In this document: one piece after another, positions 15 through 63,133 of the stretch
Layout: each line of letters starts with the position of its first letter
Position numbering within the stretch: position 1 is the first letter of the stretch
Source: a virus
Lineage: Duplodnaviria; Caudoviricetes
Virus record (IMG/VR): IMGVR_UViG_3300046383_000032
Span: 161 to 64,160 of that record
Reading direction: 5' to 3' (one strand)
Length of the DNA stretch: 64,000 nucleotides
Program-made: the position numbers and the translations under genes
Notes under the pieces: model-generated
The model's input: the letters and a program-made list of their open reading frames with translations, nothing else
The model's database searches: none
What the model was told of the DNA's origin: nothing

Positions 15-45
15 AGGGGGGCAGCCTGCGCTGCCCCCCTGCTTT
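15..45 (+). terminator. GC-rich hairpin, possible terminator
   Basis: AGGGGGGCAGC (15-25) pairs with GCTGCCCCCCT (30-40), followed by GCTTT; only a short U tract. Confidence 0.4.
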
Positions 46-81
46 ACCTTCGAAGGTATCAACGAGGAGACCGCAACACTC

Positions 82-426
82 ATGATCGACGTACTCAAGA
101 TAGGCGTGCCGTTGGGCGCGCTCATGGGCCTGCTGCTGGCAGCCGAGCCGCTGCCCGCTCAGAACCGCGTGCCGTGCTGGACGGTGCCCAACGGGGCCGC
201 CTTCACGACGCAGTGTGCCAACGGTTGGTTCATGTCGCTGATGCCCGACGGCACCGTCGTCGAGGGCGTCCTGACCGACCCGACCGCAACCAATCCCGGC
301 TCGACCATCCCGATGGACGACAAGGGCAACGTCATCAACCGTGGTGCCGTGCAGGCACCGCCACCCAACCAGAACAACGCCGCTCCCGGCAGCTGGTACT
401 ACTATGGAGGTCAACCCCCGCAATGA
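82..426 (+). CDS. hypothetical secreted protein
   Basis: GAGGAG RBS upstream; hydrophobic N-terminus ending AAEPLPAQ resembles a signal peptide; Pro/Asn-rich tail. Confidence 0.7.
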   Translation: MIDVLKIGVPLGALMGLLLAAEPLPAQNRVPCWTVPNGAAFTTQCANGWFMSLMPDGTVVEGVLTDPTATNPGSTIPMDDKGNVINRGAVQAPPPNQNNAAPGSWYYYGGQPPQ

Positions 427-608
427 GCACCCTACGTACAATGCGAATTATTGTCCTGTCGCTGGCCTTCGCCGTCTTTACGGCATTGGCCATTGGGCTG
501 GCCGTCACCTACGACCGGGAGAACTGGGCGTGGTGGTGGGTCGGCATCGTCACCGTGCTGATGCTCGCCATCGTGGCGGACATCTGGCGCGACATGTGGA
601 GGTCGTGA
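423..608 (+). CDS. small two-TM membrane protein
   Basis: ATGA overlap with the previous stop; two hydrophobic stretches (IIVLSLAFAVFTALAIGLAV and WWWVGIVTVLMLAIVA). Confidence 0.65.
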   Translation: MSTLRTMRIIVLSLAFAVFTALAIGLAVTYDRENWAWWWVGIVTVLMLAIVADIWRDMWRS

Positions 609-955
609 TGACACTCAAGTCGCGGCGCTTCTACATGCTCATGGCCTACCTTGCGGGGAGCTTCCCGAATGGTCGGCCCCGCGTGATCCCCGTGCCGCCG
701 CCGCCCGGCGTCGCCGGCGACTGCCTGCTGTGGGAAGGGGCCAAGTCGGTGTCCGGCGACGGCAGGCACTACGCCAAGGCCAAGGTGGAGGGCAAGACCG
801 GGCACCTGCGGACCGCCATCTGCTGCGCCAACTACGGCTGGGCGGACATCACCGGCTACGCGGGCGTCGTCGCCGTCTGCGACCAGCCGCTGTGCTGCAA
901 CCCCGACCATCTCAAGCCCGGCGTCAGGCCGGAGGCAAGGCTGGTGGCGTCGTGA
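608..955 (+). CDS. HNH-endonuclease-like protein, probably degenerate
   Basis: TGATG coupling; CLLWEGAK...CDQPLCCNPDHL resembles the phage HNH pattern CW.W.G...H.CDN..C.NP.HL but lacks the His before CD. Confidence 0.55.
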   Translation: MTLKSRRFYMLMAYLAGSFPNGRPRVIPVPPPPGVAGDCLLWEGAKSVSGDGRHYAKAKVEGKTGHLRTAICCANYGWADITGYAGVVAVCDQPLCCNPDHLKPGVRPEARLVAS

Positions 956-1152
956 CCACCCGCGAAGCCAAGCTCGAGGAGGTCGTGCAGGCTCTCCTCG
1001 CGTGGGGCCGGGACAACGTCAGCCCGTCTGACAGCCCGAGCCTGCACCTCCTGCTGATCGCAGCCGCAACTGCGCTCAACACTCCGAAAGACGACTACCA
1101 CCCGACGGCGCAGAACCTCGCCATCGACACCATCCTCAACGACCGAAGCTAA
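952..1152 (+). CDS. hypothetical protein
   Basis: GTGA overlap; GC3-rich codons (VTTREAKLEE...). Confidence 0.55.
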   Translation: MTTREAKLEEVVQALLAWGRDNVSPSDSPSLHLLLIAAATALNTPKDDYHPTAQNLAIDTILNDRS

Positions 1153-1209
1153 CCTTCGAAGGTAAGGGGGGTACTGCGCGGTGCAGTACCCCAACACAGG
1201 AGAGAAGTC

Positions 1210-1458
1210 ATGAACGACAAGATCATCGGCAAGTGGGTGCGCTCCTTCGGGTCGCGCTACTGGGAAGGGCCCTGCACCTGCGGTTCAGGCAGGGAAGGCC
1301 ATGAGTTGTACGACGGCAACGGCATCTACTGCGGCATCAGCTGCTCGAAGTGCAGGCGCGAGGACACCTACCGTCCCGAGATCATGAACCGGGCCTACGA
1401 CAGCAACGACGTCGACGAGCAGATCGAGCCCGACGACGATGGCGGGGAGCGCTGGTGA
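1210..1458 (+). CDS. small Cys-rich, probably Zn-binding protein
   Basis: CTCG and CSKC pairs; AGGAGA leader. Confidence 0.7.
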   Translation: MNDKIIGKWVRSFGSRYWEGPCTCGSGREGHELYDGNGIYCGISCSKCRREDTYRPEIMNRAYDSNDVDEQIEPDDDGGERW

Positions 1459-2491: not shown

Positions 2492-2889
2492 CGACCATAC
2501 TCGACGACCTGCCCAGCCCCTGCGACATCGGCTGGCATACCTGCCTGCGCAGCTACCGCATCAACCGGGCCGTTACACTCCGGCGGCTGCTGGCGCTCTA
2601 CGACCGGGCCCGCCAAGTCGACAGCTGGTCGACCGAGATCGAGCACAGGCGGCCCATGAACAACGACGAGGTGCAGGAGGCCCACGACCGGCTGCGCTCG
2701 CTTGCCATCCGGCTCAACATGGAGCGCGACCGGCTGCTTGGCCTGCGCCTCTACCTCGAGCACTGCCGGGTGGTCCATCGCCGTGCCGACCGGCACGAGT
2801 ACGAACAGATCGTGCGCAACCTCGACGCGGGCATACCGGCCAGCGTCACGCGCCAGCTGCTGCGACGAATGAAGGCGTCCGTGCACTGA
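2488..2889 (+). CDS. hypothetical protein
   Basis: GTG start overlapping the previous stop; GGAGGAGG RBS. Confidence 0.65.
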   Translation: MTTILDDLPSPCDIGWHTCLRSYRINRAVTLRRLLALYDRARQVDSWSTEIEHRRPMNNDEVQEAHDRLRSLAIRLNMERDRLLGLRLYLEHCRVVHRRADRHEYEQIVRNLDAGIPASVTRQLLRRMKASVH

Positions 2890-3140
2890 TGAAGAACCGC
2901 AACGCCAACGTCGGCGCGGTCCGGCGCACGGCGAAGGAGATGGGAGCCGAGGTCCTCGAGATCAGGGGCGGCCACAAGCACAACCGCGTCAGGCTGCGCA
3001 CCCGGTCGGGTGTGGAGTTCTGGATGCATATCTCGTCGGGCACCCAGCACGACGTGCTCGTCCATCGCAACTGGACGAGGCAGGCGATACGGCGGGCCGA
3101 GGCCCGCAAGGAGGTGAACAGCTCATACCGTCAAAGGTAA
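2889..3140 (+). CDS. small basic protein, possibly HicA-like fold
   Basis: TGATG coupling; EIRGGHKHNRVRL...FWMHISSG loosely resembles the HicA beta-hairpin His motif; weak. Confidence 0.5.
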   Translation: MKNRNANVGAVRRTAKEMGAEVLEIRGGHKHNRVRLRTRSGVEFWMHISSGTQHDVLVHRNWTRQAIRRAEARKEVNSSYRQR

Positions 3141-3211
3141 GAACTTTCCATCAACAGGGGGTACTGCGCGGTGCAGTACCGCACCTGACCAAACACAGGA
3201 TAAAATACGTC

Positions 3212-4342: not shown

Positions 4343-4376
4343 ATTACCTTCGAAGGTAATCAGGCGAAACCTGCTT

Positions 4377-4671: not shown

Positions 4672-4811
4672 TGCCGGTCTATCGCGTCACCACCCAGCGG
4701 GTGTTCGTCGTCGAGGCCGATAACGACGGCGCGGCCATCGACGAGATCAATGCCGAACTGCACTGGGACAACGAGAGCATCGTGTCCTGCGTGGAGGTCG
4801 AGATCGAATGA
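4671..4811 (+). CDS. 46-aa acidic hypothetical protein
   Basis: TGATG coupling; GGAGG RBS; MPVYRVTTQRVFVVEAD. Confidence 0.6.
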   Translation: MPVYRVTTQRVFVVEADNDGAAIDEINAELHWDNESIVSCVEVEIE

Positions 4812-4987
4812 GGCGCTTCCATATCGCCATTACCTGCAAAGGTATCACCAACCGGCAGATGGACCGGATCGTAGACGCGATGCAGCGGCCCGCAAGGCTG
4901 CTGCACGCCGACGCTGTTCTGATCTTGGGGGATGATCCCGCCCCCAAGGTCGAGATGTGGGGTCAGGACGAGGAGGACTATACGTGA
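4808..4987 (+). CDS. 59-aa hypothetical protein, not in the ORF track
   Basis: translated by hand: MRRFHIAITCKG...LLHADAVLILGDDPAPKVEMWGQDEEDYT; overlaps start/stop codons on both sides. Confidence 0.7.
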   Translation: MRRFHIAITCKGITNRQMDRIVDAMQRPARLLHADAVLILGDDPAPKVEMWGQDEEDYT

Positions 4988-6246
4988 ATAAATCACCGCT
5001 GAAGAAGGTCAAGCTGGACGCCCAGCAGCGCAAGCTCTGGGAAGACACCTTGGCCGCGCTGAGCTGGGTCGCGCCCGGCTTCGTGCACATCATCTACGAG
5101 ATGCTGAACAACACGGGTGACGACGAAGTCGCCCTGTTCACCGAGGACATCGCCTACACGGCGGCAACCGACGGCTTCCAGATCATCCTGAAGCCCTCGA
5201 GCTTCTTCGGCTATACGCTGATGGAGCGGGTGTTCATCGTGCTGCACGAGACCATGCACGAGATACTCAACCACTGCCGGATGAGCTTCAACCTGCGCAA
5301 GGTTGGCAAGGTTACCGTCGCAGGTAAGACGCTGCCCTACGACCTGATGTTCGCCAACATCGTGCAGGACTTGGTGATCAACGCCATCCTGATCGCATCC
5401 AAGCTCGGGCTCTACAACAAGGCGTGGCTGTTCGACGCCAAGCTGCAGGCCGAGACGAAGGACTGGATCGACCTGTACTTCGAACTGTGGAAGGACATGC
5501 CCAAGGTGTCCAAGCTCGACGGCTTCGACCAGCACATGGAGCCGAACGAGAGCAAGGGCGAGGACCCCAACGAGGCGCAGCCGCGCAACGACACTCAGTG
5601 GGAGATCGCCGTCGCGGCGGGCATGGAGATACAGCGCGCCCACGGCAAGCTGCCTCAGGCACTCGAGCACTTCTTCGACATGGTGCTCAATCCCAAGGTG
5701 CCGTGGGCCGAACACGTCCGGGGGCTCATCGCCCGGATGTCGAACTCGGGCGGCTACGACTGGCACAGGCTCGACCGGCGTCTCATCGTGCGGGGCATCG
5801 GCGCGCCAAGCATGACGGGCTTCGGAGCCGACATCATCGTGGTCGGCGGCGACACATCGGGCTCGGTGTTCATGGACAAGACGCTGATCGCAAGGTGGAT
5901 CGGCGAGATCGGCGGCGTCATCGAGGACCTCAACCCGCGCGAGGTCCACGTCGTCTGGTGCGATTGGGAGGTCAAGCGTGTCGACATCTGCACTGACCCG
6001 TCCGATGTTCGCCAGATGATCTACAAGGGCGTGCCGGGCGGTGGCGGCACGAGCTTCGAGCCGGTGTTCAGATACATCGAGGAGAACGATCTGCGCCCCG
6101 ACGCGCTGATCTACCTGACCGACGGCTTCGGAACTTTCCCGAAGCAGCAGCCGGACTTCCCCGTAGTCTGGGGGAATATATCGGGTAAGGCCGCAACCTA
6201 CCCGTGGGGCGACGTCGTCGATGTCCCGACCTCCGCAGAAGCGTAG
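4984..6246 (+). CDS. metallopeptidase-vWA domain protein (MoxR partner)
   Basis: AATDG and HETMH (HExxH) in the N-terminal half; MIDAS DTSGS, GGGGTSF and YLTDG in the C-terminal half; GTG start after GAGGAGG. Confidence 0.85.
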   Translation: MNKSPLKKVKLDAQQRKLWEDTLAALSWVAPGFVHIIYEMLNNTGDDEVALFTEDIAYTAATDGFQIILKPSSFFGYTLMERVFIVLHETMHEILNHCRMSFNLRKVGKVTVAGKTLPYDLMFANIVQDLVINAILIASKLGLYNKAWLFDAKLQAETKDWIDLYFELWKDMPKVSKLDGFDQHMEPNESKGEDPNEAQPRNDTQWEIAVAAGMEIQRAHGKLPQALEHFFDMVLNPKVPWAEHVRGLIARMSNSGGYDWHRLDRRLIVRGIGAPSMTGFGADIIVVGGDTSGSVFMDKTLIARWIGEIGGVIEDLNPREVHVVWCDWEVKRVDICTDPSDVRQMIYKGVPGGGGTSFEPVFRYIEENDLRPDALIYLTDGFGTFPKQQPDFPVVWGNISGKAATYPWGDVVDVPTSAEA

Positions 6247-6259: not shown

Positions 6260-6505
6260 ATGCGGCTGGGCTACGGCTCAGCCGCCTTCGCGCGCATCAA
6301 GCACCCCACCGAGCAGGGGCGCTACTACAACGGCGACACGGCGGAGTGGTCGGATACCGACTTCACGTCGTGGGAAATGGACAACTGGCACTACGTCTTC
6401 GGGCGGAACGGTCTTCCGCCCAAAGGGGCTCGCGAATGGACGGACAGCCAAGGACGCCTCTGGGAGTTCTACGGCTTCCACATCCCGTTCGTCGAGGTCG
6501 AGTAG
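6260..6505 (+). CDS. aromatic-rich hypothetical protein
   Basis: GC3-biased ORF between vWA and the motif block. Confidence 0.6.
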   Translation: MRLGYGSAAFARIKHPTEQGRYYNGDTAEWSDTDFTSWEMDNWHYVFGRNGLPPKGAREWTDSQGRLWEFYGFHIPFVEVE

Positions 6506-6567
6506 GTACTGCGCGGTGCAGTACTTACCTTTGAAGGTTAAACGTCAAACACAGGAACTACACTCAA

Positions 6568-7502: not shown

Positions 7503-8240
7503 ATGGCAATGACCAAGAAAGACACGTCTGTCTTCGGCAGGCACCGGGCGGGCGAGATCAGAGAAGTCGTCCGAGACATGCGAAGCAAGCAGATCGAGCT
7601 GACCAAGGAGGAGTTCACCGCCGAGGAGCTGCTCGACCTGTTCGTCCACCCCGACCATCAGGAACTGATGCGGCAGAGCTACGCTCTGGTCGAGCCGAGC
7701 GGCAACATGGTGGACCTCTACACTCACCATCCCGTTGCCGACGAGTACGGCAAGTCGAGCGGCTACGTCCGGTTCCGCTGGCACCACCGCACGCTCAACG
7801 ACGGCTTCTACGTGCCGCACAAGAAGGGCGCGGAGGAACGCTACAAGGTTACCGTCAACGGTAATGCCAAGCCCGAGAACATCGCCAAGTTCTCCCGCGT
7901 CTGGGACGGGCTGATGGATGTCGAATGGCGCTTCGCCATGGTCGAGCGGGTGTTCGCTAGCCTGAACGGCCTGCTGACCACGCCGGGCCAGATGTTCTAC
8001 GTGTGGCCCTGCATCATGCCCCTGCTGCGCAAGGCAGGGATGGCCGAGGAGGCCGCCAAGCTCGAGCGGCTGACGCGGGCACCAGTCGTCGCCCTGCCGG
8101 ATGGCGTGCGGTCGATGCTGAAGGAGACCAACGACATCGTCTCGGCAGCCTTCATGCTGGAGGACATCGCCAAGCCGAACAACAACAGCTGGCCGATCAG
8201 CTACGACATACACGTCACCATAAGCCTGTCGGTAAAGTAA
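7503..8240 (+). CDS. hypothetical protein
   Basis: 245-aa GC3-biased ORF; CACAGGA leader. Confidence 0.8.
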   Translation: MAMTKKDTSVFGRHRAGEIREVVRDMRSKQIELTKEEFTAEELLDLFVHPDHQELMRQSYALVEPSGNMVDLYTHHPVADEYGKSSGYVRFRWHHRTLNDGFYVPHKKGAEERYKVTVNGNAKPENIAKFSRVWDGLMDVEWRFAMVERVFASLNGLLTTPGQMFYVWPCIMPLLRKAGMAEEAAKLERLTRAPVVALPDGVRSMLKETNDIVSAAFMLEDIAKPNNNSWPISYDIHVTISLSVK

Positions 8241-8244
8241 ACAC

Positions 8245-8273
8245 TTGACATATCACCCCCATGCTGCCATAGT
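8245..8273 (+). promoter_or_regulatory. sigma70-like promoter upstream of the DNA polymerase
   Basis: TTGACA-17 nt-CATAGT. Confidence 0.65.
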
Positions 8274-8345
8274 GGCGGCATGGGGTTCTTTTCTTTTGTC
8301 CGAAATTCGGGTACTGCACCGCGCAGTACCTTGAAAGGTAAGCCA

Positions 8346-10217
8346 ATGACCGAGCCGCTGCAGTACTGGTTCGTCGATTTCGAAACATATTACGGTGACG
8401 GCTACACGCTCACCACCATGGACCCGCCGTCGTACATCCTCGACCCGCGCTTCGAAGCGATATGCCTTGGCGTAGCCAAGGGCTTCAACGATCCACCGAC
8501 GCTTGTGGACGGTCCCCATATCCCCAGCTTTCTCAACAGCCTCCCGCCAAATGTCGCGATGGTCAGCCACAACGCCCTGTTCGACATGTGCATCATGTCG
8601 TGGCGCTACGGCTATGTGCCCAAGCTGATCGTCGACACCTTGGCTATGGCGCGCACCCTGCTGGCCCACCGGCTGGACAGCCTGTCGCTGGGCAGCGTGG
8701 CCAAGCACATCGGGCTGCAGAAGGGCGACTTCATCCACAACGTCCGCAACATGACCCGCGCCGACATCATCGCCAACGGCCTGTGGCGGGGCTACACCGA
8801 GTACTGCCTCGGCGACACGGCGATCTGCCGGGCGATCTTCCTGCACCTGATCGAGAGCCTCCCTGCCGAGGAGGTGATCCTGCACGACATGGTCGCGCGC
8901 TGCGCCGTCGAGCCTACACTCAAACTCGACATGGATGTGCTCCACGAGCACCTCGGCAACGAGGAGACGCGGAAGTCGGAATTGTTCTTCAAGGCGATGT
9001 GCGCCGGGCTGACCGACAGGTCCGAGCTGATGAGCAATCCGCAGTTCAGCGAACTGCTGCTCAAGCTGGGCGTCAACCCGCCGACCAAGGTCAGCAAGAC
9101 GACCGGGCTGCGCACTTGGGCCTTCTCGCGCAACGACCGGGCGTTCCTCGAGCTGCTCGAGCACGACGACCCGCGCGTCGGCGCGCTGGTCGAGGCCCGC
9201 ATCAGCCACAAGAGCACGCTGGAGGAGACCCGCACCCGCCGCATGATCAACATCGGGCAGTTGGACTTTCCGCACCACGGCGGCACGGAGACCATGCCCA
9301 TCCCGCTGATCGTCGGTGCCGCCCACACCCACCGCTTCGGCGGCGGCTGGAAGCTCAACTGCCAGAACTGGGGCCGCGAGAGCCCGATCAGGAAGGCCGT
9401 GATCGCACCCGAGGGCCACAAGATCGTCGCCGCCGACAGCCGCCAGATCGAGGCCCGCATGAACGCTTGGTTCTGCGGGCAGGACGACCTGCTCGAGCAG
9501 TTCCGGCAGGGCATCGACGTCTACTCGGCCTTCGCCTCCGAGATTTACCTTCGACACGTAACCCCTGCTGACAAGAACGAGCGCTTTGTCGGCAAAACCG
9601 GGGTACTCCAATTGGGCTATCAGGCTGGGTGGCGTAACTTCCAAGCCAGCGTATGGCTCAAGTCTTACGATGGCGTGAACGAACCGATCACGCTCACTGA
9701 CGATGAAGCCAACAACGTGGTCAACAAATACCGCATGCGCTATGCCAATATTTCTGGTATGTGGCGCATCCTTCCGAACATGTTTTCGGTTCTGCAAGGA
9801 AGAGAGCGCCCGGTGGAGATGGGTCCGCTGCGGTTCGAAAAGGGGAGGGTCGTCGGGCCTAACGGGCTATGCCTGCATTACCACAACCTGCGGTTCGAGA
9901 ACGGCCAGTGGTGCTACGACCACGGCGGTCGGACCTATAAAATCTACGGCGGCAAGTTCTTGGAGAACATCATCCAGTTCCTGTCGCGCATCGCCACGAT
10001 GCAGGCAGCCTTTCGACTGCGCAAACCTTTGGGTCGCTTAAGTTCACGCTTGACACATACGTCCCACGATGAAATAGTCTATCTTGCAAAAGACGACGTC
10101 GTGGGAGCCGTCAAGGAAATGCTGGAAGAAGAGATGCGCCGCTCGCCCTCGTGGGCCAAGACGCTCCCCCTCGACGTGGCAATCGGCGTGGGGCTGAGCT
10201 ATGGCGACGCAAAATGA
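8346..10217 (+). CDS. family A DNA polymerase with 3'-5' exonuclease
   Basis: ExoI DFET, ExoII HNALFD; motif A ADSRQIEAR, motif B GKTGVLQLGY, motif C HDEIV; start taken at MTEP. Confidence 0.9.
   Translation: MTEPLQYWFVDFETYYGDGYTLTTMDPPSYILDPRFEAICLGVAKGFNDPPTLVDGPHIPSFLNSLPPNVAMVSHNALFDMCIMSWRYGYVPKLIVDTLAMARTLLAHRLDSLSLGSVAKHIGLQKGDFIHNVRNMTRADIIANGLWRGYTEYCLGDTAICRAIFLHLIESLPAEEVILHDMVARCAVEPTLKLDMDVLHEHLGNEETRKSELFFKAMCAGLTDRSELMSNPQFSELLLKLGVNPPTKVSKTTGLRTWAFSRNDRAFLELLEHDDPRVGALVEARISHKSTLEETRTRRMINIGQLDFPHHGGTETMPIPLIVGAAHTHRFGGGWKLNCQNWGRESPIRKAVIAPEGHKIVAADSRQIEARMNAWFCGQDDLLEQFRQGIDVYSAFASEIYLRHVTPADKNERFVGKTGVLQLGYQAGWRNFQASVWLKSYDGVNEPITLTDDEANNVVNKYRMRYANISGMWRILPNMFSVLQGRERPVEMGPLRFEKGRVVGPNGLCLHYHNLRFENGQWCYDHGGRTYKIYGGKFLENIIQFLSRIATMQAAFRLRKPLGRLSSRLTHTSHDEIVYLAKDDVVGAVKEMLEEEMRRSPSWAKTLPLDVAIGVGLSYGDAK
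10050..10078 (+). promoter_or_regulatory. intragenic sigma70-like promoter inside polymerase motif C
   Basis: TTGACA-17 nt-AATAGT; shares TTGACACATAC with the promoter at 21954. Confidence 0.5.
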
Positions 10218-10450: not shown

Positions 10451-10554
10451 AGCGGGGTGAAGCATGGAACTCGGGCCAGCAACGTGCCCTTACCTTCAGA
10501 GGTAAGGGCATGAGGCAAATCATCGTTCGATCAATCTTCGCAAAGGATAACAAG

Positions 10555-12184: not shown

Positions 12185-12334
12185 GTGCCGGAGTTCCTAT
12201 ATACAAGACGGCATCTAGACGGCGCTTTGATCCTGTGTGCGTCGTCGCCTGAAGGCCGGGATGGTAGTACGGTTGTTGCGGGCCGGACATACCGTCCCGG
12301 CCTTTTTACCTTCGACGGTAACTGGGGGAACGCG

Positions 12335-12854: not shown

Positions 12855-13691
12855 ATGCCGGGAACGCAGCCCCGTCTTCAGCCGTTGCTTTTGACCGTCA
12901 TCGCCAAGATCAATGACAAGACGGCACACGCCGAGTGGATGATCCACCGGCACAAGATCAGGCACTACTTCAGCGTCGAGTGGGATATCGCCAAGAAGGA
13001 AATTCACAAGGGCGTGCTGACGATCCGCACGCCCTACGCCAAGGACACCCGCGACATCATGCGGCTGAAGAAGCCCGGCCAAGAGCCGCCGCTGATGAAG
13101 CTGAAGGACGTGTCGGCCAACAACACCGTCTACAAGGGCATGGTGCAGTCCATCGCCAAGGTGCTGACGTTCGACAGCGCCGTCGAGGACGCGCTGACCA
13201 GCGTGCAGAACATGGTCGAGGTCCCGGTGCCCGACTTCATCCCACCCAAGTGGCACGGCACCGTCGGCGGCTACGGCTACGACGCTCCGCTGACGATGCC
13301 GACGACACCAATCGAGGAGGCGATCAAGACCATGGGCACCGTGAACGGCACGACCAAGGCTGACGTTGACGACGCGCTGAGTGCCGAGGACGAGGCGCGC
13401 ATCGACCGCATCCTCAACGAGCCCGCATTACCTTTGAAGGTAAGCGCAGCCGAAGCCGCTGCCGCCATCGCAGGCGAAATCCTCGCCGAGGACAGCGAGT
13501 GGCAGCGTGGCTACGAGAATGGCGTCAAGGAAACGATGGCCATCCTCGAGCAGATGCGCGATGCTATGATCGACCTCTCGAAACAGCATCCCGACAGCAT
13601 CAACAAGCGCAACAACGACACCTTGCGGGGCTTCGCCAAGATGCTTCAGGAAGCAACCGACCGTGCAGGCCATCTGATCAAGGGCGTGTGA
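12855..13691 (+). CDS. hypothetical protein
   Basis: AGGAGG RBS before MPGTQ; GC3-biased. Confidence 0.8.
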   Translation: MPGTQPRLQPLLLTVIAKINDKTAHAEWMIHRHKIRHYFSVEWDIAKKEIHKGVLTIRTPYAKDTRDIMRLKKPGQEPPLMKLKDVSANNTVYKGMVQSIAKVLTFDSAVEDALTSVQNMVEVPVPDFIPPKWHGTVGGYGYDAPLTMPTTPIEEAIKTMGTVNGTTKADVDDALSAEDEARIDRILNEPALPLKVSAAEAAAAIAGEILAEDSEWQRGYENGVKETMAILEQMRDAMIDLSKQHPDSINKRNNDTLRGFAKMLQEATDRAGHLIKGV

Positions 13692-13996
13692 TGTCCATAG
13701 GCAAGGCTCCTGACAAGTACTTCGGAGTAGGCGTCGGCACCAGTCCGTACTCGGACGATGCGCCGCCGCCGAGTTTCCCGCGCTGGAGCGCCTACGAGAA
13801 GCTGGCGATGCGTCTCAACGTGCCGGAAGGGGAGGATATCAGGCCGACGGTGGCGATCCTCCCCGGCATAACCAAGATGTTCATCTTCGTGCTGAAGGGC
13901 GACAGCGCCCTGATCCTCGAGGATGCCATGGACATGTACCCGAGCGACCGTCTCGTCGCCGAGTTCCGGCTCTTTCAGCAGGCAGTGCAGGAATGA
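13691..13996 (+). CDS. hypothetical protein
   Basis: TGATG coupling; MSIGKAPD. Confidence 0.7.
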   Translation: MSIGKAPDKYFGVGVGTSPYSDDAPPPSFPRWSAYEKLAMRLNVPEGEDIRPTVAILPGITKMFIFVLKGDSALILEDAMDMYPSDRLVAEFRLFQQAVQE

Positions 13997-14806: not shown

Positions 14807-15334
14807 ATGACACGACGCAAAGTTATTCTTGAGCGCAGTGTGAAGCGTATGGTAAGTGGATACTTATTAAGTTTGCGGGGCCTGCAGTCCGGCGTCCAGT
14901 GCTACTACCGGATGACGGTGCCCTCGGGCTTCGGCAAGCAGGGCTTGGACTACGACGGCTGTATCGACGGCTGGTACTTCGCCATCGAGACGAAGGTGCC
15001 GGGAGAGTGGCTGACGCCACGGCAAAGGGAGACCGCGCTCGACGTCCTGAACGGCGGCGGCAAGGTCTTCATCATCAGCGGGCCCGACGGGCTCGAGGCG
15101 TTCCAGAGTTGGGTAGGCAAGGTCAGGGAGCGGTTCGACGATGCCAAAGAAGTACTGCAGGCACTGCGGTCAATTGCTGCCCAAGAAGGAGAGGACGCCG
15201 CGCGCCTACCCGAAGCTGAACCGCGTCGTGGTCGAGGATATCTGGCAGTCGAAGCACAAGCGCACCCATCTGGCGGCGGACCACGCCGTGCCGGTCAGGC
15301 TGGTGACGCTGATCAAGACGAAGGCAACGGTTAA
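14807..15334 (+). CDS. VRR-NUC nuclease (Holliday-junction resolvase-like)
   Basis: GLDYDGC...FAIETK...LTPRQ; the C-terminal ~64 codons overlap the next ORF. Confidence 0.75.
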   Translation: MTRRKVILERSVKRMVSGYLLSLRGLQSGVQCYYRMTVPSGFGKQGLDYDGCIDGWYFAIETKVPGEWLTPRQRETALDVLNGGGKVFIISGPDGLEAFQSWVGKVRERFDDAKEVLQALRSIAAQEGEDAARLPEAEPRRGRGYLAVEAQAHPSGGGPRRAGQAGDADQDEGNG

Positions 15335-15362
15335 GGAGGCGCTCGATGCTTACTCGGCTTAG
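15141..15362 (+). CDS. small basic Zn-ribbon protein
   Basis: CRHCG; codon bias favours this frame over the overlapping VRR-NUC tail. Confidence 0.65.
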   Translation: MPKKYCRHCGQLLPKKERTPRAYPKLNRVVVEDIWQSKHKRTHLAADHAVPVRLVTLIKTKATVKEALDAYSA

Positions 15363-16781: not shown

Positions 16782-17180
16782 ATGCCTGACGTAGAAGGGA
16801 CGCTGGAGAAGATGGTCTCCGGCTACATCAAGTTGCGCGACAAGCGTGACGCACTGAAAAAAGTCCACAGCGCCGAGATCAAGAAGTTCAACGACGCTAT
16901 GGGAGAGATCGAGGACTACCTGCGGGGCCACCTGCAGGCTAGCAACCTCACATCCATATCTTGTAGGGACGCCACCGCGTTCCTCAAGATGGACACCTCG
17001 GCCACCGTTGCCGACATGGGTGTCTTTCGTGAGCACGTTATTTCAACAAGGAACTTTGACCTTGCTGACTTCCGTGCTAAGAAGGAAGCCGTAGAGGAGT
17101 TCGTCGCCAACAACGACGGGCAGCTCCCTCCCGGTGTGAATTATAGCCAGCACCAAGGCGTTCAGGTTCGCCGAAAGTAA
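16782..17180 (+). CDS. conserved phage replication-module protein
   Basis: YIKLRDKR...LPPGVN pattern typical of the gene after the helicase in such phages. Confidence 0.7.
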   Translation: MPDVEGTLEKMVSGYIKLRDKRDALKKVHSAEIKKFNDAMGEIEDYLRGHLQASNLTSISCRDATAFLKMDTSATVADMGVFREHVISTRNFDLADFRAKKEAVEEFVANNDGQLPPGVNYSQHQGVQVRRK

Positions 17181-17190: not shown

Positions 17191-18468
17191 ATGGCAAACG
17201 AACTGACAATCTTCCGCACCGGAGCAGTCGCCTCAACCAAGTTCGACACCGTCGACCTGCCGAAGGAACGGCTCGACGATGGCGTCGGCGGCGGCTTCGC
17301 CCGCGTCGGCTACAAGGCCAAGGAGTGGAGCATCCGCTACCAAGGTGCCGTCCACACGCTCAAGGTCCGCACCGCCGATGGCGACGAGGTCAACTCGTCG
17401 TTCTTCGACTGCGTCATCCTGCGCGCCAGCAAGCACCCGAACAAGACGTTCTACATGGACGCCTACACGGAGGAGAACTCGGCCCGCAAGCCGCCCGACT
17501 GCTGGTCGAGCAATGGGGTCAGGCCGGACAGCGGCGTGCCGATCATGGACCACCCGAGCAAGGGCGGACGGCAGAGCCCGACCTGCGTCTCGTGCCCGTG
17601 GAACGTCTGGGGCTCCAAGATCAACCGCGAGACCGGGCAGGCCACCCGAGGCAAGGCCTGCATGGACAGCAAGCACGTAGCCGTGGTGCCGGTGGGCGAC
17701 ATCGAGAACGTGATGTACGGCGGCCCGATGCTGCTCTCGATCCCGCCGTCCTCGCTGAAGAAGCTGGGCCCCTACCAGAACATGCTGGAGGCCAACCACT
17801 TCAGCTACACCATGGTGTGGACCCGTATCGGCTTCGAGCCGAGCGAGGTGGCGGCCTACCCGATGTTCAAGTTCGACGCCATGGCGGCGCTGAACGACGT
17901 TCAGGCGGATCAGGTCATCCGCATGCTCAACCACCCGCTGATCGACCGCATCCTCGAGGCCGAGGTCGTCAGCACGGAGGCGTGGGACGAGAGCGCGCAG
18001 GAAGTTCACCAGTCGATCAAGCCGCCGCCCCCGCCTGTCGCTGCCGTACCTTCGAAGGTAACCGACGTCGAGCCGGAGGAGCCCGCCGAGAAGGCCCCGC
18101 CTGCGGCCACAGCTGCCCCTGTGGTGGCCGGGAAGCCTCCGGCCACGGTGACCATGCCCAACGGCATGGTGCTCACCATGGAGCAGCTGCAGGCCTTGTC
18201 GCCCGATCAGATCAGGGCGATGAGCGGGAACGGCAGCGCACCGGCAGAGGCACCGGCACCGGCAGGACCAGCCAAGCGACAGACCAAGCCGCGCACTCCG
18301 CCGGTCAGCCCGACGCCGACCGACAGCGCGAAGGTGACGGGCATGTCAGGCAACGACCTGCCAACCCCCGTGCCGATGCCCGTCCCCGCGCAGGCGGCCA
18401 AGCCTGCAGCCAACGGTGGCGCAGACCCTGCCTCCAAGCTCCTCCAGACAATCGACGAGATGACGTAG
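17191..18468 (+). CDS. putative ssDNA-binding/annealing protein with a Pro/Ala-rich tail
   Basis: PDCWSSNG, CVSCPWN..GS, KAC and LLSIPPSSLK motifs; position between helicase and primase. Confidence 0.55.
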   Translation: MANELTIFRTGAVASTKFDTVDLPKERLDDGVGGGFARVGYKAKEWSIRYQGAVHTLKVRTADGDEVNSSFFDCVILRASKHPNKTFYMDAYTEENSARKPPDCWSSNGVRPDSGVPIMDHPSKGGRQSPTCVSCPWNVWGSKINRETGQATRGKACMDSKHVAVVPVGDIENVMYGGPMLLSIPPSSLKKLGPYQNMLEANHFSYTMVWTRIGFEPSEVAAYPMFKFDAMAALNDVQADQVIRMLNHPLIDRILEAEVVSTEAWDESAQEVHQSIKPPPPPVAAVPSKVTDVEPEEPAEKAPPAATAAPVVAGKPPATVTMPNGMVLTMEQLQALSPDQIRAMSGNGSAPAEAPAPAGPAKRQTKPRTPPVSPTPTDSAKVTGMSGNDLPTPVPMPVPAQAAKPAANGGADPASKLLQTIDEMT

Positions 18469-22621: not shown

Positions 22622-22652
22622 CCGACCTGCGCGGCTCAGTCGCGCAGGTCGG
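22622..22652. terminator. 12-bp-stem hairpin at the convergence of the + and - modules
   Basis: CCGACCTGCGCG-7 nt-CGCGCAGGTCGG; no U tract. Confidence 0.55.
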
Positions 22653-41278: not shown

Positions 41279-41296
41279 CGCTTACCTTCGAAGGTA

Positions 41297-48230: not shown

Positions 48231-48307
48231 CGTACCTCCGGGTTTCCAGCGTGCGCGCGAATGAGGACCCTTACCGTTGAAGGTAAGGGCCCCCAATCAT
48301 CGCCCGA

Positions 48308-49327
48308 TCACGGTGGAACAGGCTCGGTAACGATAGCCTCTGCCAGTGCGATCCCGTCGAGGACCTTGTAACCGAACACCTGCAGACCACGCAGCAGCGT
48401 ACCGAAAGTGAACTCGGAGCGCAGCGTCTCGACCTTGCTGATCTGCGACGCGAAGGTGAGCGCGTGCGGATGACCGGCGTAGACCGCCCACTCGCCAGCC
48501 GCCAGCGCGGGCGGTCCGGTGACCGCGCCCTTGGGTGTCAGGTTCGACACGTAGAGCGTGAAGCGGTCGATCATGCCGAGGCGACCGTTGCGCAGGATCG
48601 AGGTCGCGTCGCCCGACAGGTAAGCCTGCCTGAGTTCGCTCTCCTTGATCAGCGCAGCCATCCACGCGGGCATGACGATCCAGCGGCCCTGCTCGGGGAT
48701 GTTCTGCTCGTCGAGCACCAGCCCGAGCCGGAGCACGATCTGCAGGACGGTGGCCTGCCCGGCGACCGGCGGGCTCGCCTGATTGGCGACCACCGGCACG
48801 GGTGTGCCCGTCACGCCGAGGTTCAGGTTGGCGCTGATCTTACCAGCGGTGATGCCACGGTTGGACGCATTCGCCTGCCCGAGGATGCCGAGCAGCACCA
48901 TCGTGTCGACGGTGATCTTCATCTGTTGGGCGGCGTCGTCGGACCAGATGCCCATCAGGTTGATGTCGCTCTGGATTTCCATGACGTCGTCCAAAATCTC
49001 GTTGAAGTAGAGACCTTGGTCGATCTTGAGGTCGACGATGTTGGAGCCGGGGCGCTCGACGGCGAGGCTGCCGCCAGCGAGGTAGGGCTTGATCGAGATC
49101 GTCGGCTTGGTTCGGATGTGAACCGTGTCGCCTTGGTTCCTGATCTCGCCCTCGTAGTCGGTGTTGCTGATCGCCGCCAGCACGGTGCTGGCATAGAACT
49201 TCTCGATCAGCTTGCCCGACCAGATTTCGGGGATGAACGTGCCGCTGTACGCGGGTGTCGGTTGGATGGAGCCGGTCGGGAAGATCGGAGGTGTGGTGCC
49301 CGCACCGGCAAGAGGATAACCAGCCAT
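48308..49327 (-). CDS. major capsid protein (P22 coat-like)
   Basis: FIPEIWSGKL, NTDYEGEI, GDTVHI, LRGLQVFGYKV; follows scaffold and portal. Confidence 0.9.
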   Translation of the reverse strand: MAGYPLAGAGTTPPIFPTGSIQPTPAYSGTFIPEIWSGKLIEKFYASTVLAAISNTDYEGEIRNQGDTVHIRTKPTISIKPYLAGGSLAVERPGSNIVDLKIDQGLYFNEILDDVMEIQSDINLMGIWSDDAAQQMKITVDTMVLLGILGQANASNRGITAGKISANLNLGVTGTPVPVVANQASPPVAGQATVLQIVLRLGLVLDEQNIPEQGRWIVMPAWMAALIKESELRQAYLSGDATSILRNGRLGMIDRFTLYVSNLTPKGAVTGPPALAAGEWAVYAGHPHALTFASQISKVETLRSEFTFGTLLRGLQVFGYKVLDGIALAEAIVTEPVPP

Positions 49328-53871: not shown

Positions 53872-54402
53872 ATGGAAGTTGATGACAATGCCCCACCCGT
53901 GCGCAGGGTTTACGACGTAGAGACCATGATCTCGCGTCTCGCAAGGGACATCGCCCGCAATCTCATCACCGTCACCGAGGTTCGCGAGCGCTACCAGCTC
54001 GACGACTTCGAGTTCGACCGCCTGCTCAAGTCGCCGTTCTTCGCCGTGCGCTTCGAGGAAGAGCTGGCCGAATGGAACGCGGGCACCGCCAAGGCGGGCG
54101 AGCAGCGCGTGCAGGCCAAGTCGCTCACCATGATCGAGGAGAGCTTGCCCGAAATATTCGCCCTCATCCACGACAAGAACCAACCGATGGGTGCCAAAAT
54201 TCAAGCGTTGCAGTGGGCATCAAATGTAGCAGGCCTCGTCAAGAAGGATGCTCCGGCGGGCCTCGACGGGCGCAACGCCTCCGACCGGATCAGGTTCAAC
54301 ATCTTCATCGACAACAAGAAGGTGAGCTTCGACAAGCCCATCGACGAAGTACCTTCGAAGGTAATCGACGGCACGGCCACCCTCGTCGACAAGGAAGTCT
54401 AG
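53872..54402 (+). CDS. terS: terminase small subunit
   Basis: abuts terL; N-terminal HTH-like and helical core. Confidence 0.6.
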   Translation: MEVDDNAPPVRRVYDVETMISRLARDIARNLITVTEVRERYQLDDFEFDRLLKSPFFAVRFEEELAEWNAGTAKAGEQRVQAKSLTMIEESLPEIFALIHDKNQPMGAKIQALQWASNVAGLVKKDAPAGLDGRNASDRIRFNIFIDNKKVSFDKPIDEVPSKVIDGTATLVDKEV

Positions 54403-56261: not shown

Positions 56262-56588
56262 TCACGCCAGAAAAAGCACCAACAGGGCGGTCTGGTCGGG
56301 GTCGATCTCGAGCGTGCCTTCGTTGACAATGATCGACTTTAAGCTGTCGCGTCTTATCTGCAGGCGGGCGACGTTGTCGTCGCGAACGCGCCGGATCAGG
56401 AAGATGAACTCGTCGGCGTGCCGGTCGTAGCTCGTGATCACGTCGCGTATCTCGCCGAGCAGCTCCGGGCTGAGCACGCGCTCGAAAATCGCGCGCACGC
56501 CGATGAGGGTCGAGGTCTCGCGATTGTAGGCCGTAACGGGTATGTGGCTCATCCTGTCGTAGATTTCCACGATGTCGCTATCGCCCAT
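56262..56588 (-). CDS. hypothetical protein
   Basis: 108 aa, GC3 bias. Confidence 0.7.
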   Translation of the reverse strand: MGDSDIVEIYDRMSHIPVTAYNRETSTLIGVRAIFERVLSPELLGEIRDVITSYDRHADEFIFLIRRVRDDNVARLQIRRDSLKSIIVNEGTLEIDPDQTALLVLFLA

Positions 56589-56613
56589 GATTTTACCTTC
56601 AAAGGTACGAACT

Positions 56614-59066: not shown

Positions 59067-59067
59067 T

Positions 59068-59707: not shown

Positions 59708-59717
59708 TCGTTATCGC

Positions 59718-60100: not shown

Positions 60101-60640
60101 TCACGCGGCCCTCGCCCTTTCTGCTTCGCGCTTCTTGCGCTCGCGCTGCTGGGTCCTGTGCCAGCGCGGCGCAGGCTCCTCGATGCCGAGCGCCTGCTCG
60201 ATGCTCCAGCCGCGCTCGAGCCGCCGGTAGGCCGTCACGTACTTGACGTCGGAGTGGTCCTTGACGGCGTCGGCAAGGGTCATCTTCCTACCTTTGAAGG
60301 TAACGATGGGGCTCGAGGCGCGATTGCCGGAAACAATCCGGTAGCCCTTGGCGAGAAAGAAGCGCTGCGAGGCGGCAACGGCGGCGAACGACTGGTGGAC
60401 GTCGACCTCGCCGGTCTTCATCACCTTGAAGACGTACTCGTCCGACGGATGCTTGGGCAGCTCCCGGATCGGCCAGTAGCTGGTGTCGTCCTCGTCCTGA
60501 CTGAGCAGCATGTGGCTCATCGAGTGGCTGCGCTTCTGCAGGTTCTGGGTGTAGCTGACGTAGGCGAAGCGACGCCTGCGGTTGATCAGCGCGAACACCC
60601 CGGCCTGCAGGGGGATGACGGAAGGCTCGCGGTACATCAT
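60101..60640 (-). CDS. GIY-YIG-like nuclease fused to a homing-endonuclease-type DNA-binding tail
   Basis: GVFALIN...YVSYTQNLQKR; VTFKGRKMTLADA...YRRLERGWSIEQALG. Confidence 0.65.
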   Translation of the reverse strand: MMYREPSVIPLQAGVFALINRRRRFAYVSYTQNLQKRSHSMSHMLLSQDEDDTSYWPIRELPKHPSDEYVFKVMKTGEVDVHQSFAAVAASQRFFLAKGYRIVSGNRASSPIVTFKGRKMTLADAVKDHSDVKYVTAYRRLERGWSIEQALGIEEPAPRWHRTQQRERKKREAERARAA

Positions 60641-60912: not shown

Positions 60913-61286
60913 CTTAGGTGGGTAGTGTCAAGTAGGGATAATGCAACTTCTTATCGTGCGGATTTTTTCGGGTTCGAGGATTTTTGGGTGTGTCAAGTAC
61001 GTGTTCTTATGTGTCAAGTAGGAACTATCTCCAATACTCGAAATTTATTGTTCGCTGGGAAAAGGCCCGGCGACGGGAGGGGGGGCCCCGGCCATGTCGG
61101 GGTGGGGGCTGGCCACCAGCGCTAGCGTCGAGCCATCGAGCCCCTGCCGCCGCCGCTGCCCGCGAGTGCGCCGCTCCGTTCATCGCAACGCGCGGACCGC
61201 GCCCCCCTTAGATGTAGGACCGCTCGAAACCCGACGGCCACAGGTACTGCGCGGTGCAGTACCTTCGAAGGTAAAGGAACCACATC

Positions 61287-62021
61287 ATGGCTAAGCAATC
61301 GAAGACCGCTCGCAAGTCTCGCAAGGACGGCGGGCCACTTGACTTCACGACGCCATTTCTCGCCGAGGCACTCGGCGTCGGCGTCGGTCTCGCCGCCAAG
61401 AACGCTGGCGGCGCGTGGGCGCGCTACGGCGCGTGCATCAACGCCATCCGCTCCGGCGAGATGCTGCTTGATGACACTGCCGCATTCATCATGGCGGAGC
61501 AGCGCGCCTTGAACGAGTGGCGCGTTGCGAATGACCTGCCCGCACAACCCGTCGTCGAGCCGGGCAAGAACACGGTGAGCGACACGAAGACCGTGTTCAA
61601 ACTTCACATGCACAAGTGCTTCCCGACGTTGTGGAAGTTGCTTGAGCCGATGAAGCCGAGCGCTTCATCGCTGCAGGTGATCGCTCGCAACGTGCGCAAC
61701 ACGGTCGAGAAGAGCGAGACCGCGCCGCCGTCACTCGAGAAGATCAAGTCGTGGGTGATCAGCGGCAAGCTCGCAAAGAAGCCGGGCCGCACGGTTCGCG
61801 GCAAGTCGGCGAAGCGCAAGGGCGGCGGCAAGCTCGCCTGTCCCGTCGGTCGCCTGAAGGCGTTGCGTGATGCGGTGACTGACTATCGCACCACGTTCAA
61901 GCTCGCGAACGACCGCTCGATCAGCGCCATGCTTGGCGCGTGCGACAGCTTGAAGGTCGTCGCGGCCAAGATCATCGCCGACCGCAAGGCGGCGGCGGCG
62001 AAGGCGAAGGCGGCGGAGTAA
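61287..62021 (+). CDS. basic hypothetical early protein
   Basis: AAGGA RBS; preceded by motifs B and A; followed by a terminator. Confidence 0.8.
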   Translation: MAKQSKTARKSRKDGGPLDFTTPFLAEALGVGVGLAAKNAGGAWARYGACINAIRSGEMLLDDTAAFIMAEQRALNEWRVANDLPAQPVVEPGKNTVSDTKTVFKLHMHKCFPTLWKLLEPMKPSASSLQVIARNVRNTVEKSETAPPSLEKIKSWVISGKLAKKPGRTVRGKSAKRKGGGKLACPVGRLKALRDAVTDYRTTFKLANDRSISAMLGACDSLKVVAAKIIADRKAAAAKAKAAE

Positions 62022-62028
62022 TCAAACG

Positions 62029-62058
62029 GGGCGAGCCTTCGGGCTCGCCTCTTTTTTT
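62029..62058 (+). terminator. Rho-independent terminator
   Basis: GGCGAGCC-TTCG-GGCTCGCC followed by TCTTTTTTT. Confidence 0.9.
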
Positions 62059-62655
62059 GTGCGTGCTCGTACCTTGGAAGATAATTCGCGGGCTTACCGC
62101 CCTGCGCAGTACTGCGCGGCGCAGTACCTAGGCTCGGCCCCCATCGGGGGGCGATGTGTTATGCGTGCTATCACGCATAACACATCGAGTATTAGTTTGT
62201 CAACCCGCAGAGGGGTGATAAACACTCAGAAAGACCATGGGCGGGCGCGTTTGGGGGGACTGCACGAGCATATCTGTCACAGAATTGGCGAGGCTCCCGC
62301 AGTTAGCTCGGCTCGTAAGTGCTTGATCCGATTAATCGTTCGGTTCAGTCGTTCTGTTCGGTTTCGGAACTCGCGCACTTAGTTTTGGAAGCTAAGTCAT
62401 TGATATGATTAACTGCGCAGGTACCCCCCCCCTTATAATAACTGACTATTCAGACAGAGTATATTATATAGGGGGTAGGTCTGCACTAACACATATACCC
62501 CCTCCCCCCATTGACTATGACCTACGCTCCTGTACAGTCCTCTAGTTCCAGAATTCCGACACATACTTAATTTCGCAAATCAGTAAGTCGGATCATACAC
62601 TTAAACTGTTGCACAATCTCGGGCACTTCAGTCCCGACACTAACGGAGACCTACG

Positions 62656-63090
62656 ATGGATGCGAACAACAAGACCTACGCGGCCTACATGGCCCTGCCG
62701 ACCGACGCCCGCGAGGCGCTTGCCGAGCAGTTCACCCAGTTCACGGCGGGCATAGTGCCGGAGCATGTCTTCGCCATGCTGATCGACGAAGTGATGAACC
62801 CCTCCTCTTCCTTGCGGCTTTCGCTGGGGCTGGGGCCCATACTCACTGCCGCCGAGCGCGAGGCGAAGCGGGCCGAGCGTGCCGCCGAGCGCGCCGAGCA
62901 GAAGAAGCAGGCGAAGCTGGCCGAGCGCGAGGCGAAGCGTGCCGAGCGCGAGCGGCGGGTCGAGCAGGCCAAGCAGGCGAAGAGGGACAGGCACGCCGAG
63001 AGGCAGGCCATGTGGCGTCGGCATAAGGCCGAGCGTGCCGACCTCGAGGACCGGCAGGCCCGCGAGCGCGCCGAGTTCGAAGCGCAGTAA
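62656..63090 (+). CDS. charged coiled-coil protein
   Basis: GGAG RBS; AEREAKRAER repeats. Confidence 0.75.
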   Translation: MDANNKTYAAYMALPTDAREALAEQFTQFTAGIVPEHVFAMLIDEVMNPSSSLRLSLGLGPILTAAEREAKRAERAAERAEQKKQAKLAEREAKRAERERRVEQAKQAKRDRHAERQAMWRRHKAERADLEDRQARERAEFEAQ

Positions 63091-63104
63091 GAACCAAGTT
63101 TCAA

Positions 63105-63133
63105 TTGACAAGACTTACCTTCGACGGTAACGT
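63105..63133 (+). promoter_or_regulatory. sigma70-like promoter overlapped by motif A
   Basis: TTGACA-17 nt-TAACGT, with TTACCTTCGACGGTAA at 63115-63130. Confidence 0.6.

Follow-up and report, generated by a model that had tools for sequence, protein, structure and literature searches.

Dyad repeats that recur over a whole genome have been noted in a few phages, for example in the Cluster O mycobacteriophages, and have never been explained. The subject here is an array of this kind, 27 copies of the palindrome TACC-N6-GGTA in a 64,000-nucleotide stretch of DNA of a soil phage (the window; positions 161 to 64,160 of IMG/VR record IMGVR_UViG_3300046383_000032, Caudoviricetes). The window is nearly the whole of this 64,160-bp record, which is rated complete. 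New features are the clade-wide array, a sequence that co-varies with lineage, often regular spacing and a candidate reader. The clade offers comparative material for such repeats, with hundreds of relatives, many lineage variants, positions that are kept while their sequence changes, and cultured Rhizobium phages. In the literature we found nothing relevant for the motif, and the RHph phages of this clade are named in no paper found.

The Cluster O dyad repeat is the nearest published description. These mycobacteriophages (Corndog) carry more than 30 copies per genome of a 17-bp dyad repeat, 5'-TGTTCGGNNNCCGAACA; like the sites described here the copies lie genome-wide and mostly away from promoters, and about a third of them are inside genes (PMC4351075). 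The authors predict a dimeric DNA-binding protein and leave the function of the repeats unknown (PMC4351075). Neither the Cluster O phages nor this clade are obviously temperate. The window array falls into the same descriptive class of dyad repeats, which implies no homology, the phage group, host phylum and sequence being unrelated. The Cluster O sites are invariant in five near-identical genomes, whereas here there are lineage variants in hundreds of divergent relatives; unlike in Cluster O, positions are conserved while the sequence changes, spacing is statistically even and there is a candidate reader. Cluster O phages encode proteins with ParB-like domains, and none was found in five genomes of this clade.

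KorB and its 12 OB operators on plasmid RK2 are the best mechanistic analogy for action at a distance from dispersed palindromes. As here, a palindromic site of 13-16 bp is dispersed over a replicon of ~60 kb, and KorB is a dimer that acts up to ~1.5 kb from its site (PMC11790492). A reader acting at ~1.5 kb, like KorB, would explain a need for even coverage. The domain that defines KorB is absent here: unlike for KorB, ParB and Noc, no ParB_N/CTPase protein is detectable in five complete clade genomes. In further contrast to RK2, most sites lie in genes and the copy number is 2-6 times higher.

The Rep and PriRep proteins of Staphylococcus aureus pathogenicity islands (SaPI) and the Cch protein of the staphylococcal cassette chromosome SCCmec are self-loading replication initiators; in them, as in the candidate reader here, a primase is either fused to an SF3/DUF927 helicase or paired with one, and the helicase has a terminal winged helix (PDB 8tch, 5dgk). 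In SaPI PriRep5, a primase-SF3 helicase fusion, the wing of the C-terminal winged helix reads iterons of 5-7 nt, and inverted iterons have been proposed as melting points (bioRxiv 10.64898/2026.10.17.759575). As in the reading proposed here, the recognition units of these initiators measure 5-7 nt, and inverted ones matter for melting (bioRxiv 10.64898/2026.10.17.759575; PMC9371898). Between related elements of this type both the initiator and the site specificity differ.

The stoperators of the Cluster A phages (L5) are also found in dozens of copies genome-wide, inside genes as well, and vary by lineage together with their reader. Each stoperator is an asymmetric 13-mer that points in the direction of transcription, and the protein that binds it is a temperate phage's immunity repressor. 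The sites described here are symmetric, many of those in the window being perfect palindromes, and no repressor, integrase or partition gene was found by Pfam, PHROGs and NCBIfam scans. An initial annotation, made from the sequence alone, had contrasted the array with the oriented L5 sites on the same point of symmetry, and that contrast holds.

The palindrome array in the window and its relatives

The 27 copies of TACC-N6-GGTA compare with a mean of 0.15 and a maximum of 2 in dinucleotide-preserving shuffles of the window. The consensus 16-mer, TTACCTTCGAAGGTAA, reads T-TACC-TTCGAA-GGTA-A, with its outermost T and A found in 19 of the 27 copies each; spacers of N5 or N7 do not occur in the window (0 copies of each). 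Three further copies have one arm mismatch each (1150-1165, 6525-6540 and 62069-62084). By the gene map, which was built on codon usage, 18 of the 27 copies lie within open reading frames (ORFs) and 9 between them. The site at 44-59 is probably intergenic, judging from its surroundings (see the table), and if it is counted so there are 17 sites in genes and 10 between genes. Of the sites, 17 fall in the ~25 kb of the early/replication arm (plus strand, 61.3 kb to 22.6 kb by way of the record ends) and 7 in the rightward 31-kb virion arm (minus strand, 22.6-53.8 kb). The initial annotation had counted 27 copies at exactly these coordinates, placed about 17 in coding sequence and described the early arm as denser, all of which agrees with our count. 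It listed two one-mismatch copies, at 1150 and 6525, and these are genuine, to which the third is now added; its chance expectation of 0.6 was too cautious and its G+C content of 67% slightly high, the window having ~65%.

The sites are selected at the DNA level, at a cost in rare codons and amino-acid changes. When synonymous codons were shuffled gene by gene, the window's 18 in-gene sites fell to a mean of 1.5 (maximum 4 in 400 shuffles), and shuffling of codon order left 0.32. The same synonymous test gave 4.3 against 60 in-gene sites in the uncultured relative G003, and 2.9 against 28 in the cultured phage RHph_TM3_14A. Codons in the arms have a mean within-family frequency of 0.30, compared with 0.58 for all other codons. 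Two reading frames are used, one giving (L/V/I)-P-S-K-V from TTA/GTA/ATA CCT TCG AAG GTA and the other V/I/L-T-x-x-G-x from GTT ACC nnn nnn GGT; the third would put a TAA stop codon into the gene. In the small-terminase gene the site was made by amino-acid-changing substitutions, without insertion, and reads VPSKV where the nearest relative (G001) has TNTKT. The in-gene excess, the rare codons and these substitutions therefore indicate selection on the DNA that prevails over codon preference and sometimes over protein sequence. This had been the suggestion of the initial annotation, from PSKV-type and T-x-x-G peptides in two frames; both peptide classes are confirmed, and codon-preserving controls, which it had proposed as a check, leave a strong enrichment.

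Hundreds of relatives bear palindromes of 15-18 bp that are their lineage's own, every 1-2 kb, in genes and gaps alike. IMG/VR contains at least 589 relatives by capsid and at least 383 by helicase; 20 kb of the window, compared with the phage collection at the nucleotide level, gave no match. The nearest cultured relatives are the Rhizobium phages RHph_TM3_14A, TM27A, TM27B and TM29, whose capsid proteins are 68% identical to that of the window. RHph_TM3_14A, a phage of Rhizobium etli, has 44 sites, 31 of them GTTACC-N6-GGTAAC and 13 with N5 spacers, the spacer sequences being unrelated. G003 has 68-80 copies of TTACC-N5/6-GGTAA with random spacers. Other lineages carry TTACCA-N3-TGGTAA (G004), TTGACA-N3-TGTCAA (G002), GTTACA-N5-TGTAAC (G005), TTCCCCGTACGGGGAA (L108) and TTCCTCGTACGAGGAA (L109). 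The palindrome of G001, whose capsid is 87% identical to that of the window, is TTACGCCCCGGGCGTAA, and that of its sister G210 is TCACGCCCCGGGCGTGA, one symmetric base apart. Close relatives with capsids 85-87% identical thus bear different palindromes.

Some positions are retained. At nucleotides ~1180-1198 of the primase gene the window, L108 and L109 each have the palindrome of their own lineage, and directly after the capsid stop codon the palindrome tops a longer GC-rich, terminator-like hairpin in many relatives. Positions that can persist through such changes of sequence speak for a reader that co-evolves with the sites.

Spacing is often regular as well. The coefficient of variation (CV) of site-to-site gaps is 0.58 in G003, with a longest gap of 1969 bp, and 0.43 in G004 (P<2e-4 against random placement in both). 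Gaps are also evener than random in RHph_TM3_14A (P=0.006) and G002 (P=0.045); in G001 regularity is not significant. In G003 intervals of ~1 kb continue through a 7-kb giant gene, so gene boundaries do not explain the even spacing.

Half-sites on duplex DNA and the candidate reader

The two arms of the palindrome vary independently. A pool of TTACC-type sequence (673 kb from 27 genomes) contains 381 perfect sites and 284 with a mismatch in a single arm (19 for the control pattern), and only 29 with compensated changes in both arms (control 8), which is approximately the prediction for independent half-sites. Variation is centred on positions 1, 2 and 5 of the arm, the central A-C is nearly fixed, and the spacers of G003 and RHph_TM3_14A are unrelated in sequence. 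Since the arms mutate singly without compensation, the element appears to be read as duplex DNA by a symmetric protein and not as a hairpin. On this comparison of sequences the sites are two independent half-sites on duplex DNA, a design compatible with a dimer, or a protein symmetric in some other way, that acts genome-wide; the initial annotation had proposed symmetric sites for such a dimeric binder, and single-arm variation bears this out for what is still a putative protein. The palindromes are probably docking sites for a symmetric duplex-DNA binder encoded by the phage.

It is quite improbable that the palindromes act instead as hairpins of RNA or single-stranded DNA, whether as translational operators that hide the Shine-Dalgarno sequence, as the tops of mRNA-stabilising or terminator stems, or as promoters or priming signals of the N4 or RSF1010 ssi type. 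Mismatches that break the pairing are nearly as frequent as perfect sites and compensation is not favoured; a terminator or translational operator was rejected on the same counts (284 single-arm against 29 compensated changes, beyond controls of 19 and 8), which show no maintained pairing. As single strands the sites are predicted to form weak hairpins (-3 to -6.5 kcal/mol), and of two G003 sites that were folded one (-4.0 kcal/mol) was no better than its own shuffles. About a third of the sites do lie 3-19 nt before start codons, with AGGTAA as ribosome-binding site, and behind the capsid gene the palindrome tops the longer hairpin described above; two-thirds, however, are within genes on either strand, and where many intergenic copies touch a ribosome-binding site or form a terminator top, the reason is the tiny size of the gaps and the tolerance of such places for a palindrome, which explains their position without a role in RNA. 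A hairpin would also accord with the sharing of TACC with a second palindrome (motif B, below) at 8326 and 61259, where the two folds are mutually exclusive, and with a weak sense-strand bias of the asymmetric centre base (13 vs 4 in G210, 9 vs 6 in G001). A phage RNA polymerase was not detected by Pfam, by a PDB sequence search or by the DxDGD motif. N4-type hairpin promoters in particular were rejected, the arm pairing not being conserved and the 3043-residue virion protein having no RNA polymerase match (a very divergent enzyme is conceivable).

Some of the functions listed in the initial annotation lose support. A classical operator is difficult to reconcile with 17-18 of 27 sites lying in genes; sigma-70-like promoters are few in the window and only the site at 63115 lies inside one, and the scans of window ORFs with Pfam, PHROGs and NCBIfam found neither a repressor nor an integrase. 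The remark that no classical repressor, ParB or integrase is visible was correct, ParB_N being absent from five genomes as well. A loader of the ParB/parS type finds no support in a six-frame search for ParB_N (PF02195), which at E<=1 gave no candidate in five complete clade genomes (G000-G004) and recovered the domain in 11 of 14 known genomes used as a control; a Pfam scan of 83 window proteins likewise found no ParB. A handle for ejection or packaging is still conceivable; neither in the small terminase nor in the alignable virion proteins does any residue track the motif type.

A host protein (a regulator, a nucleoid protein or a defence or repair system) that the phage recruits or titrates is a highly improbable reader, even though some variants resemble host elements, for instance TTGACA-N3-TGTCAA in G002, and no dedicated phage reader is proven. 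Relatives with capsids 85-87% identical differ in palindrome. Each of 201 genomes from a single order of bacteria, which may not be that of the host, has 0-11 copies of the motif, in most cases no more than of its reversed control; a host regulator with few sites is conceivable. Four genomes with related capsid genes, from which the true host may again differ, have 0-1 copies; the search of bacterial assemblies for capsid genes returned mostly mis-binned contigs of metagenome-assembled genomes. The suggested decoy for a host regulator lacks support on the same counts, each lineage having its own palindrome.

Among the phage proteins, the 1010-residue AEP primase-DUF927 helicase is the candidate reader. 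Its DUF927 domain is matched at E=1.7e-11, and its AEP domain matches 6zp9 weakly. An AlphaFold2 (AF2) model of the C-terminal 320 residues (about 20617-21576; pLDDT 85.5) matches SCCmec Cch (5dgk) with a Foldseek probability of 1.00 and the SaPIbov1 Rep initiator (8tch) with 0.99, and its terminal beta-beta-alpha-alpha-beta-beta module (about 21346-21546) has weaker matches to winged-helix DNA binders. The protein is thus predicted to have an initiator-like fold that ends in a winged-helix-like module. No other core protein has diverged as far: the window and its five nearest relatives share 34-39% identity in it, compared with 65-73% in the SNF2 helicase. In lineages that keep TTAC(C/T) the wing region is conserved, as (R/K)LG(S/A/G)GT, and in the subclade where the palindrome diversified it is hypervariable; within that subclade the wing of the window is nearest to that of L110, the one near relative with the TTACC type (37% vs 26-31%). 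As a link between primase-helicase and motif this pattern of sequences is suggestive. The primase-helicase, acting in replication, is the best single candidate for the reader, though at somewhat less than even odds, and it is to the same degree conceivable that it binds the sites and that this binding starts or restarts replication.

In the mechanism that we propose, each half-site (TTACC here) would be read separately by one subunit of a symmetric phage-encoded protein, and selection would keep a site about every 1-2 kb wherever coding sequence can bear one. Each palindrome would be an inverted pair of 5-6-nt iterons, at which helicase rings could load head to head, or reload and prime. The outcome would be a dispersed lattice of initiation or priming sites in the phage chromosome, replacing one clustered origin. 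It is a more speculative and rather unlikely extension that the virus replicates or re-primes at 27-80 evenly spaced mini-origins, where inverted iterons assemble a self-loading primase-helicase, and that site and wing co-evolve as a private code which also marks the DNA as self.

Several observations weigh against the primase-helicase and the dispersed lattice. The window and L110 have TTACC and yet a wing unlike that of other TTACC lineages, so that the link between wing and motif is not one-to-one, and the fast divergence of the primase could simply reflect module exchange. The protein has no alignment column that is conserved in TTACC-type genomes and rare elsewhere, a test with low power in the poorly aligned wing and further blurred by TTACT-type and few-site genomes, which have the common wing. 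In the window itself the gaps show no significant regularity (CV 0.76, P=0.10). In SaPIs the origin is a single cluster of ~300 bp immediately downstream of rep, in which direct and inverted iterons surround an AT-rich region, whereas here there are single inverted pairs with a spacer of 5-6 bp, spread genome-wide, and binding is only a candidate activity; no tight cluster of sites resembling a clustered iteron origin was seen. The SaPI and plasmid initiators known so far work from one clustered origin, which adjoins the rep gene and flanks an AT-rich stretch. We know of no precedent for a lattice of 27-80 dispersed sites. There is, finally, a second clade-wide and fast-diverging protein, p245 (7503-8240), with a confident model that has no PDB match, as an alternative candidate.

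That the sites dock p245 or a small, fast-evolving early protein, which organises, compacts, protects or silences the chromosome in the manner of KorB, ParB or Noc without being a ParB, is possible but somewhat doubtful. Half-sites, lineage-specific sequence and even spacing fit any symmetric duplex-DNA binder equally, and the Cluster O repeats too have been assigned to an unidentified dimeric binder (PMC4351075). p245 has 245 residues, is found across the clade in 70 clusters at 50% identity, and is as diverged as the primase between the sisters G001 and G210 (46% identical, with 42% for the primase-helicase and 72-87% for most other core proteins); in G001 and L179 a palindrome stands 12-13 nt before the gene call at its position. 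Its AF2 model (pLDDT 94.6) has no PDB match by Foldseek or VIA-align (best Z 5.3), and the Atlas model is poor. The model contains no recognisable DNA-binding module, however, and besides the missing ParB_N no helix-turn-helix, ribbon-helix-helix or other DNA-binding family was found in scans of all ORFs with Pfam, PHROGs and NCBIfam. None of the accessory gene families in the replication module (21 kb) is present or absent in step with the TTACC type, and no motif-tracking column was found in nine other proteins of that module or in 11 alignable virion/packaging proteins (33-52 genomes). Three small genes were tried and rejected: p101 (13691-13996) seemed linked to TTACC in 7 genomes and failed on 52 loci (14/27 vs 8/25), p132 (16782-17180) belongs to the virus-only family DUF7307 and gives no functional clue, and p73 (15141-15362) looks HTH-like by eye without a family match or a relative in other genomes.

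If the primase-helicase is the reader, phage replication could be multi-origin and lineage-coded, and this would have consequences for phage incompatibility, for how relatives recombine and for orthogonal replicon design. A different reader would mean a chromosome-marking system without ParB.

Gene map, site positions and minor observations

The virion arm includes the gene for the 3043-residue protein, the capsid gene (48308-49327) and the portal gene. The terminase genes are on the plus strand, and a block of small minus-strand genes occupies 55.8-60.9 kb. Annotated products are a MoxR ATPase, a vWA protein, a family-A DNA polymerase, a RecB-like exonuclease, a VRR-NUC nuclease, an SNF2 helicase, an SSB-like protein of 425 residues, the primase-helicase, and an SU10-like portal and adaptor; no RNA polymerase was found among the annotated window genes.

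Table. Positions of the palindromic sites, the motif-B copies and the candidate reader in the window
Feature	Position	Strand	Context
Site TTACCTTCGAAGGTAT	44-59		Directly after strong terminator hairpin 15-40; 23 nt before ATG 82
One-mismatch site TAACCTTCGAAGGTAA	1150-1165		6 nt before motif-B hairpin
Site	3125-3140		Stop of ORF 2889-3140; motif B 22 nt on
Site	4344-4359		2 nt past MoxR ATPase stop codon
Site	4830-4845		Small ORF 4808-4987; I-T-C-K-G
Site	5312-5327		vWA/metallopeptidase gene; V-T-V-A-G
One-mismatch site TTACCTTTGAAGGTTA	6525-6540		Abuts motif B
Site	7849-7864		p245 gene 7503-8240; V-T-V-N-G
Site	8326-8341		5 nt before DNA polymerase start; TACC common to motif B
Site	10490-10505		Intergenic, 5 nt before ORF 10510; flanks lengthen palindrome by 6 bp
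Site	12306-12321		Intergenic, 14 nt before endolysin gene
Site	13428-13443		ORF 12855-13691; L-P-L-K-V
Site	13999-14014		Codons 3-7 of RecB-like exonuclease gene; L-P-S-K-V
Site	18046-18061		Linker of SSB-like 425-residue protein gene; V-P-S-K-V
Candidate reader, AEP primase + DUF927 SF3 helicase, 1010 residues	18547-21579	+	
Site	19744-19759		Primase-helicase gene, nt 1198; L108 and L109 have their own palindrome at the same place
Site	20846-20861		Second site in primase-helicase gene
Site	21920-21935		End of ORF 21760-21957; ~20 bp before -35 box of promoter-like TTGACA-N17-TATGAT
Site	24222-24237		45-residue basic protein gene; I-P-S-K-V
Site	25170-25185		3043-residue virion protein gene
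Site	31346-31361		3043-residue virion protein gene
Site	33128-33143		3043-residue virion protein gene
Site	37531-37546		Virion protein gene 37269-38552
Site	41282-41297		Intergenic, 4 nt before start of internal virion protein gene 39338-41278 (-)
Site	48271-48286		22 nt past major capsid stop; top of longer hairpin, -10 kcal/mol; arrangement common to many relatives
Site	54349-54364		Small-terminase-like gene; arose by substitutions, VPSKV (TNTKT in G001)
Site	56593-56608		Intergenic, 5 nt before start of ORF 56262-56588 (-)
Site	60288-60303		ORF 60101-60640 (-)
Site	61259-61274		Intergenic, 13 nt before ORF 61287; TACC common to motif B
One-mismatch site GTACCTTGGAAGATAA	62069-62084		After terminator 62028-62051, before motif B
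Site	63115-63130		Spacer of TTGACA-N17-TAACGT; motif B 10 nt downstream
Motif B, seven copies	1170-1190, 3160-3180, 6505-6525, 8310-8330, 61243-61263, 62108-62128, 63138-63158		

Motif B is a second palindrome, GGTACTGC-N5-GCAGTACC, with 8-bp arms. Six of its seven copies stand between early genes, and the seventh overlaps ORF 63149 at its annotated start. Every copy adjoins or overlaps a copy of the TACC-N6-GGTA type (motif A), and the loop occurs in both orientations. At 8245-8346 a promoter-like TTGACA-N17-CATAGT overlaps a strong terminator hairpin (8257-8285), with the -10 box in the terminator loop; a transcript begun there would escape termination, and motifs B and A would lie in the leader of the DNA polymerase mRNA.

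The protein of 425 residues (17191-18468) has a conserved N-terminal domain with four cysteines, a disordered linker rich in proline and alanine, and a conserved acidic C-terminal tip, a layout that resembles an SSB or annealing protein, without a Pfam family. The VRR-NUC-type nuclease gene (14816-15144, plus strand) is present in all relatives and was left uncalled in the gene map, which has a spurious minus-strand ORF over the spot. There are two genes for small HNH endonucleases, at 22636-22914 (minus strand) and 608-955 (plus strand); the 92-residue HNH protein is near-core, 66-76% identical in the five nearest relatives. A very basic protein of 45 residues (24178-24315, minus strand) is 83% identical to its counterpart in RHph_TM3_14A, compared with 68% for the capsid.

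The 3043-residue protein (24736-33867, minus strand) occupies the place that the virion RNA polymerase has in N4-like phages. Its matches to PHROG families, one of them annotated DarB-like, are confined to the C-terminal 700 residues, and Pfam, the PDB sequence search and the DxDGD motif gave no support for a virion RNA polymerase.

In the GenBank entry of RHph_TM3_14A (MN988472.1) a repeated 14-mer, TCTCCGGCCCGCTG, at 26780-26793 and 56586-56599 is annotated attL/attR, and the primase-helicase is labelled 'putative integrase'; these look like automatic mis-annotations. The 'terminal repeats' of 123-127 nt in G001, G002 and G004 lie inside genes, look like assembly overlaps and give no information on physical ends. 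In an isolate of Candidimonas nitroreducens (L196) a capsid gene 49% identical to that of the window lies within the stretch 140-161 kb of a 167-kb scaffold, and this position deep inside the scaffold suggests that distant relatives may be integrated or plasmid-like.

By Pfam, the block of small genes has Tad2-like and Acb2/Tad1-like members. Between 60900 and 61030 there are three closely spaced copies of GTGTCAAGTA, which on the minus strand read as TTGACA -35 boxes facing this block.

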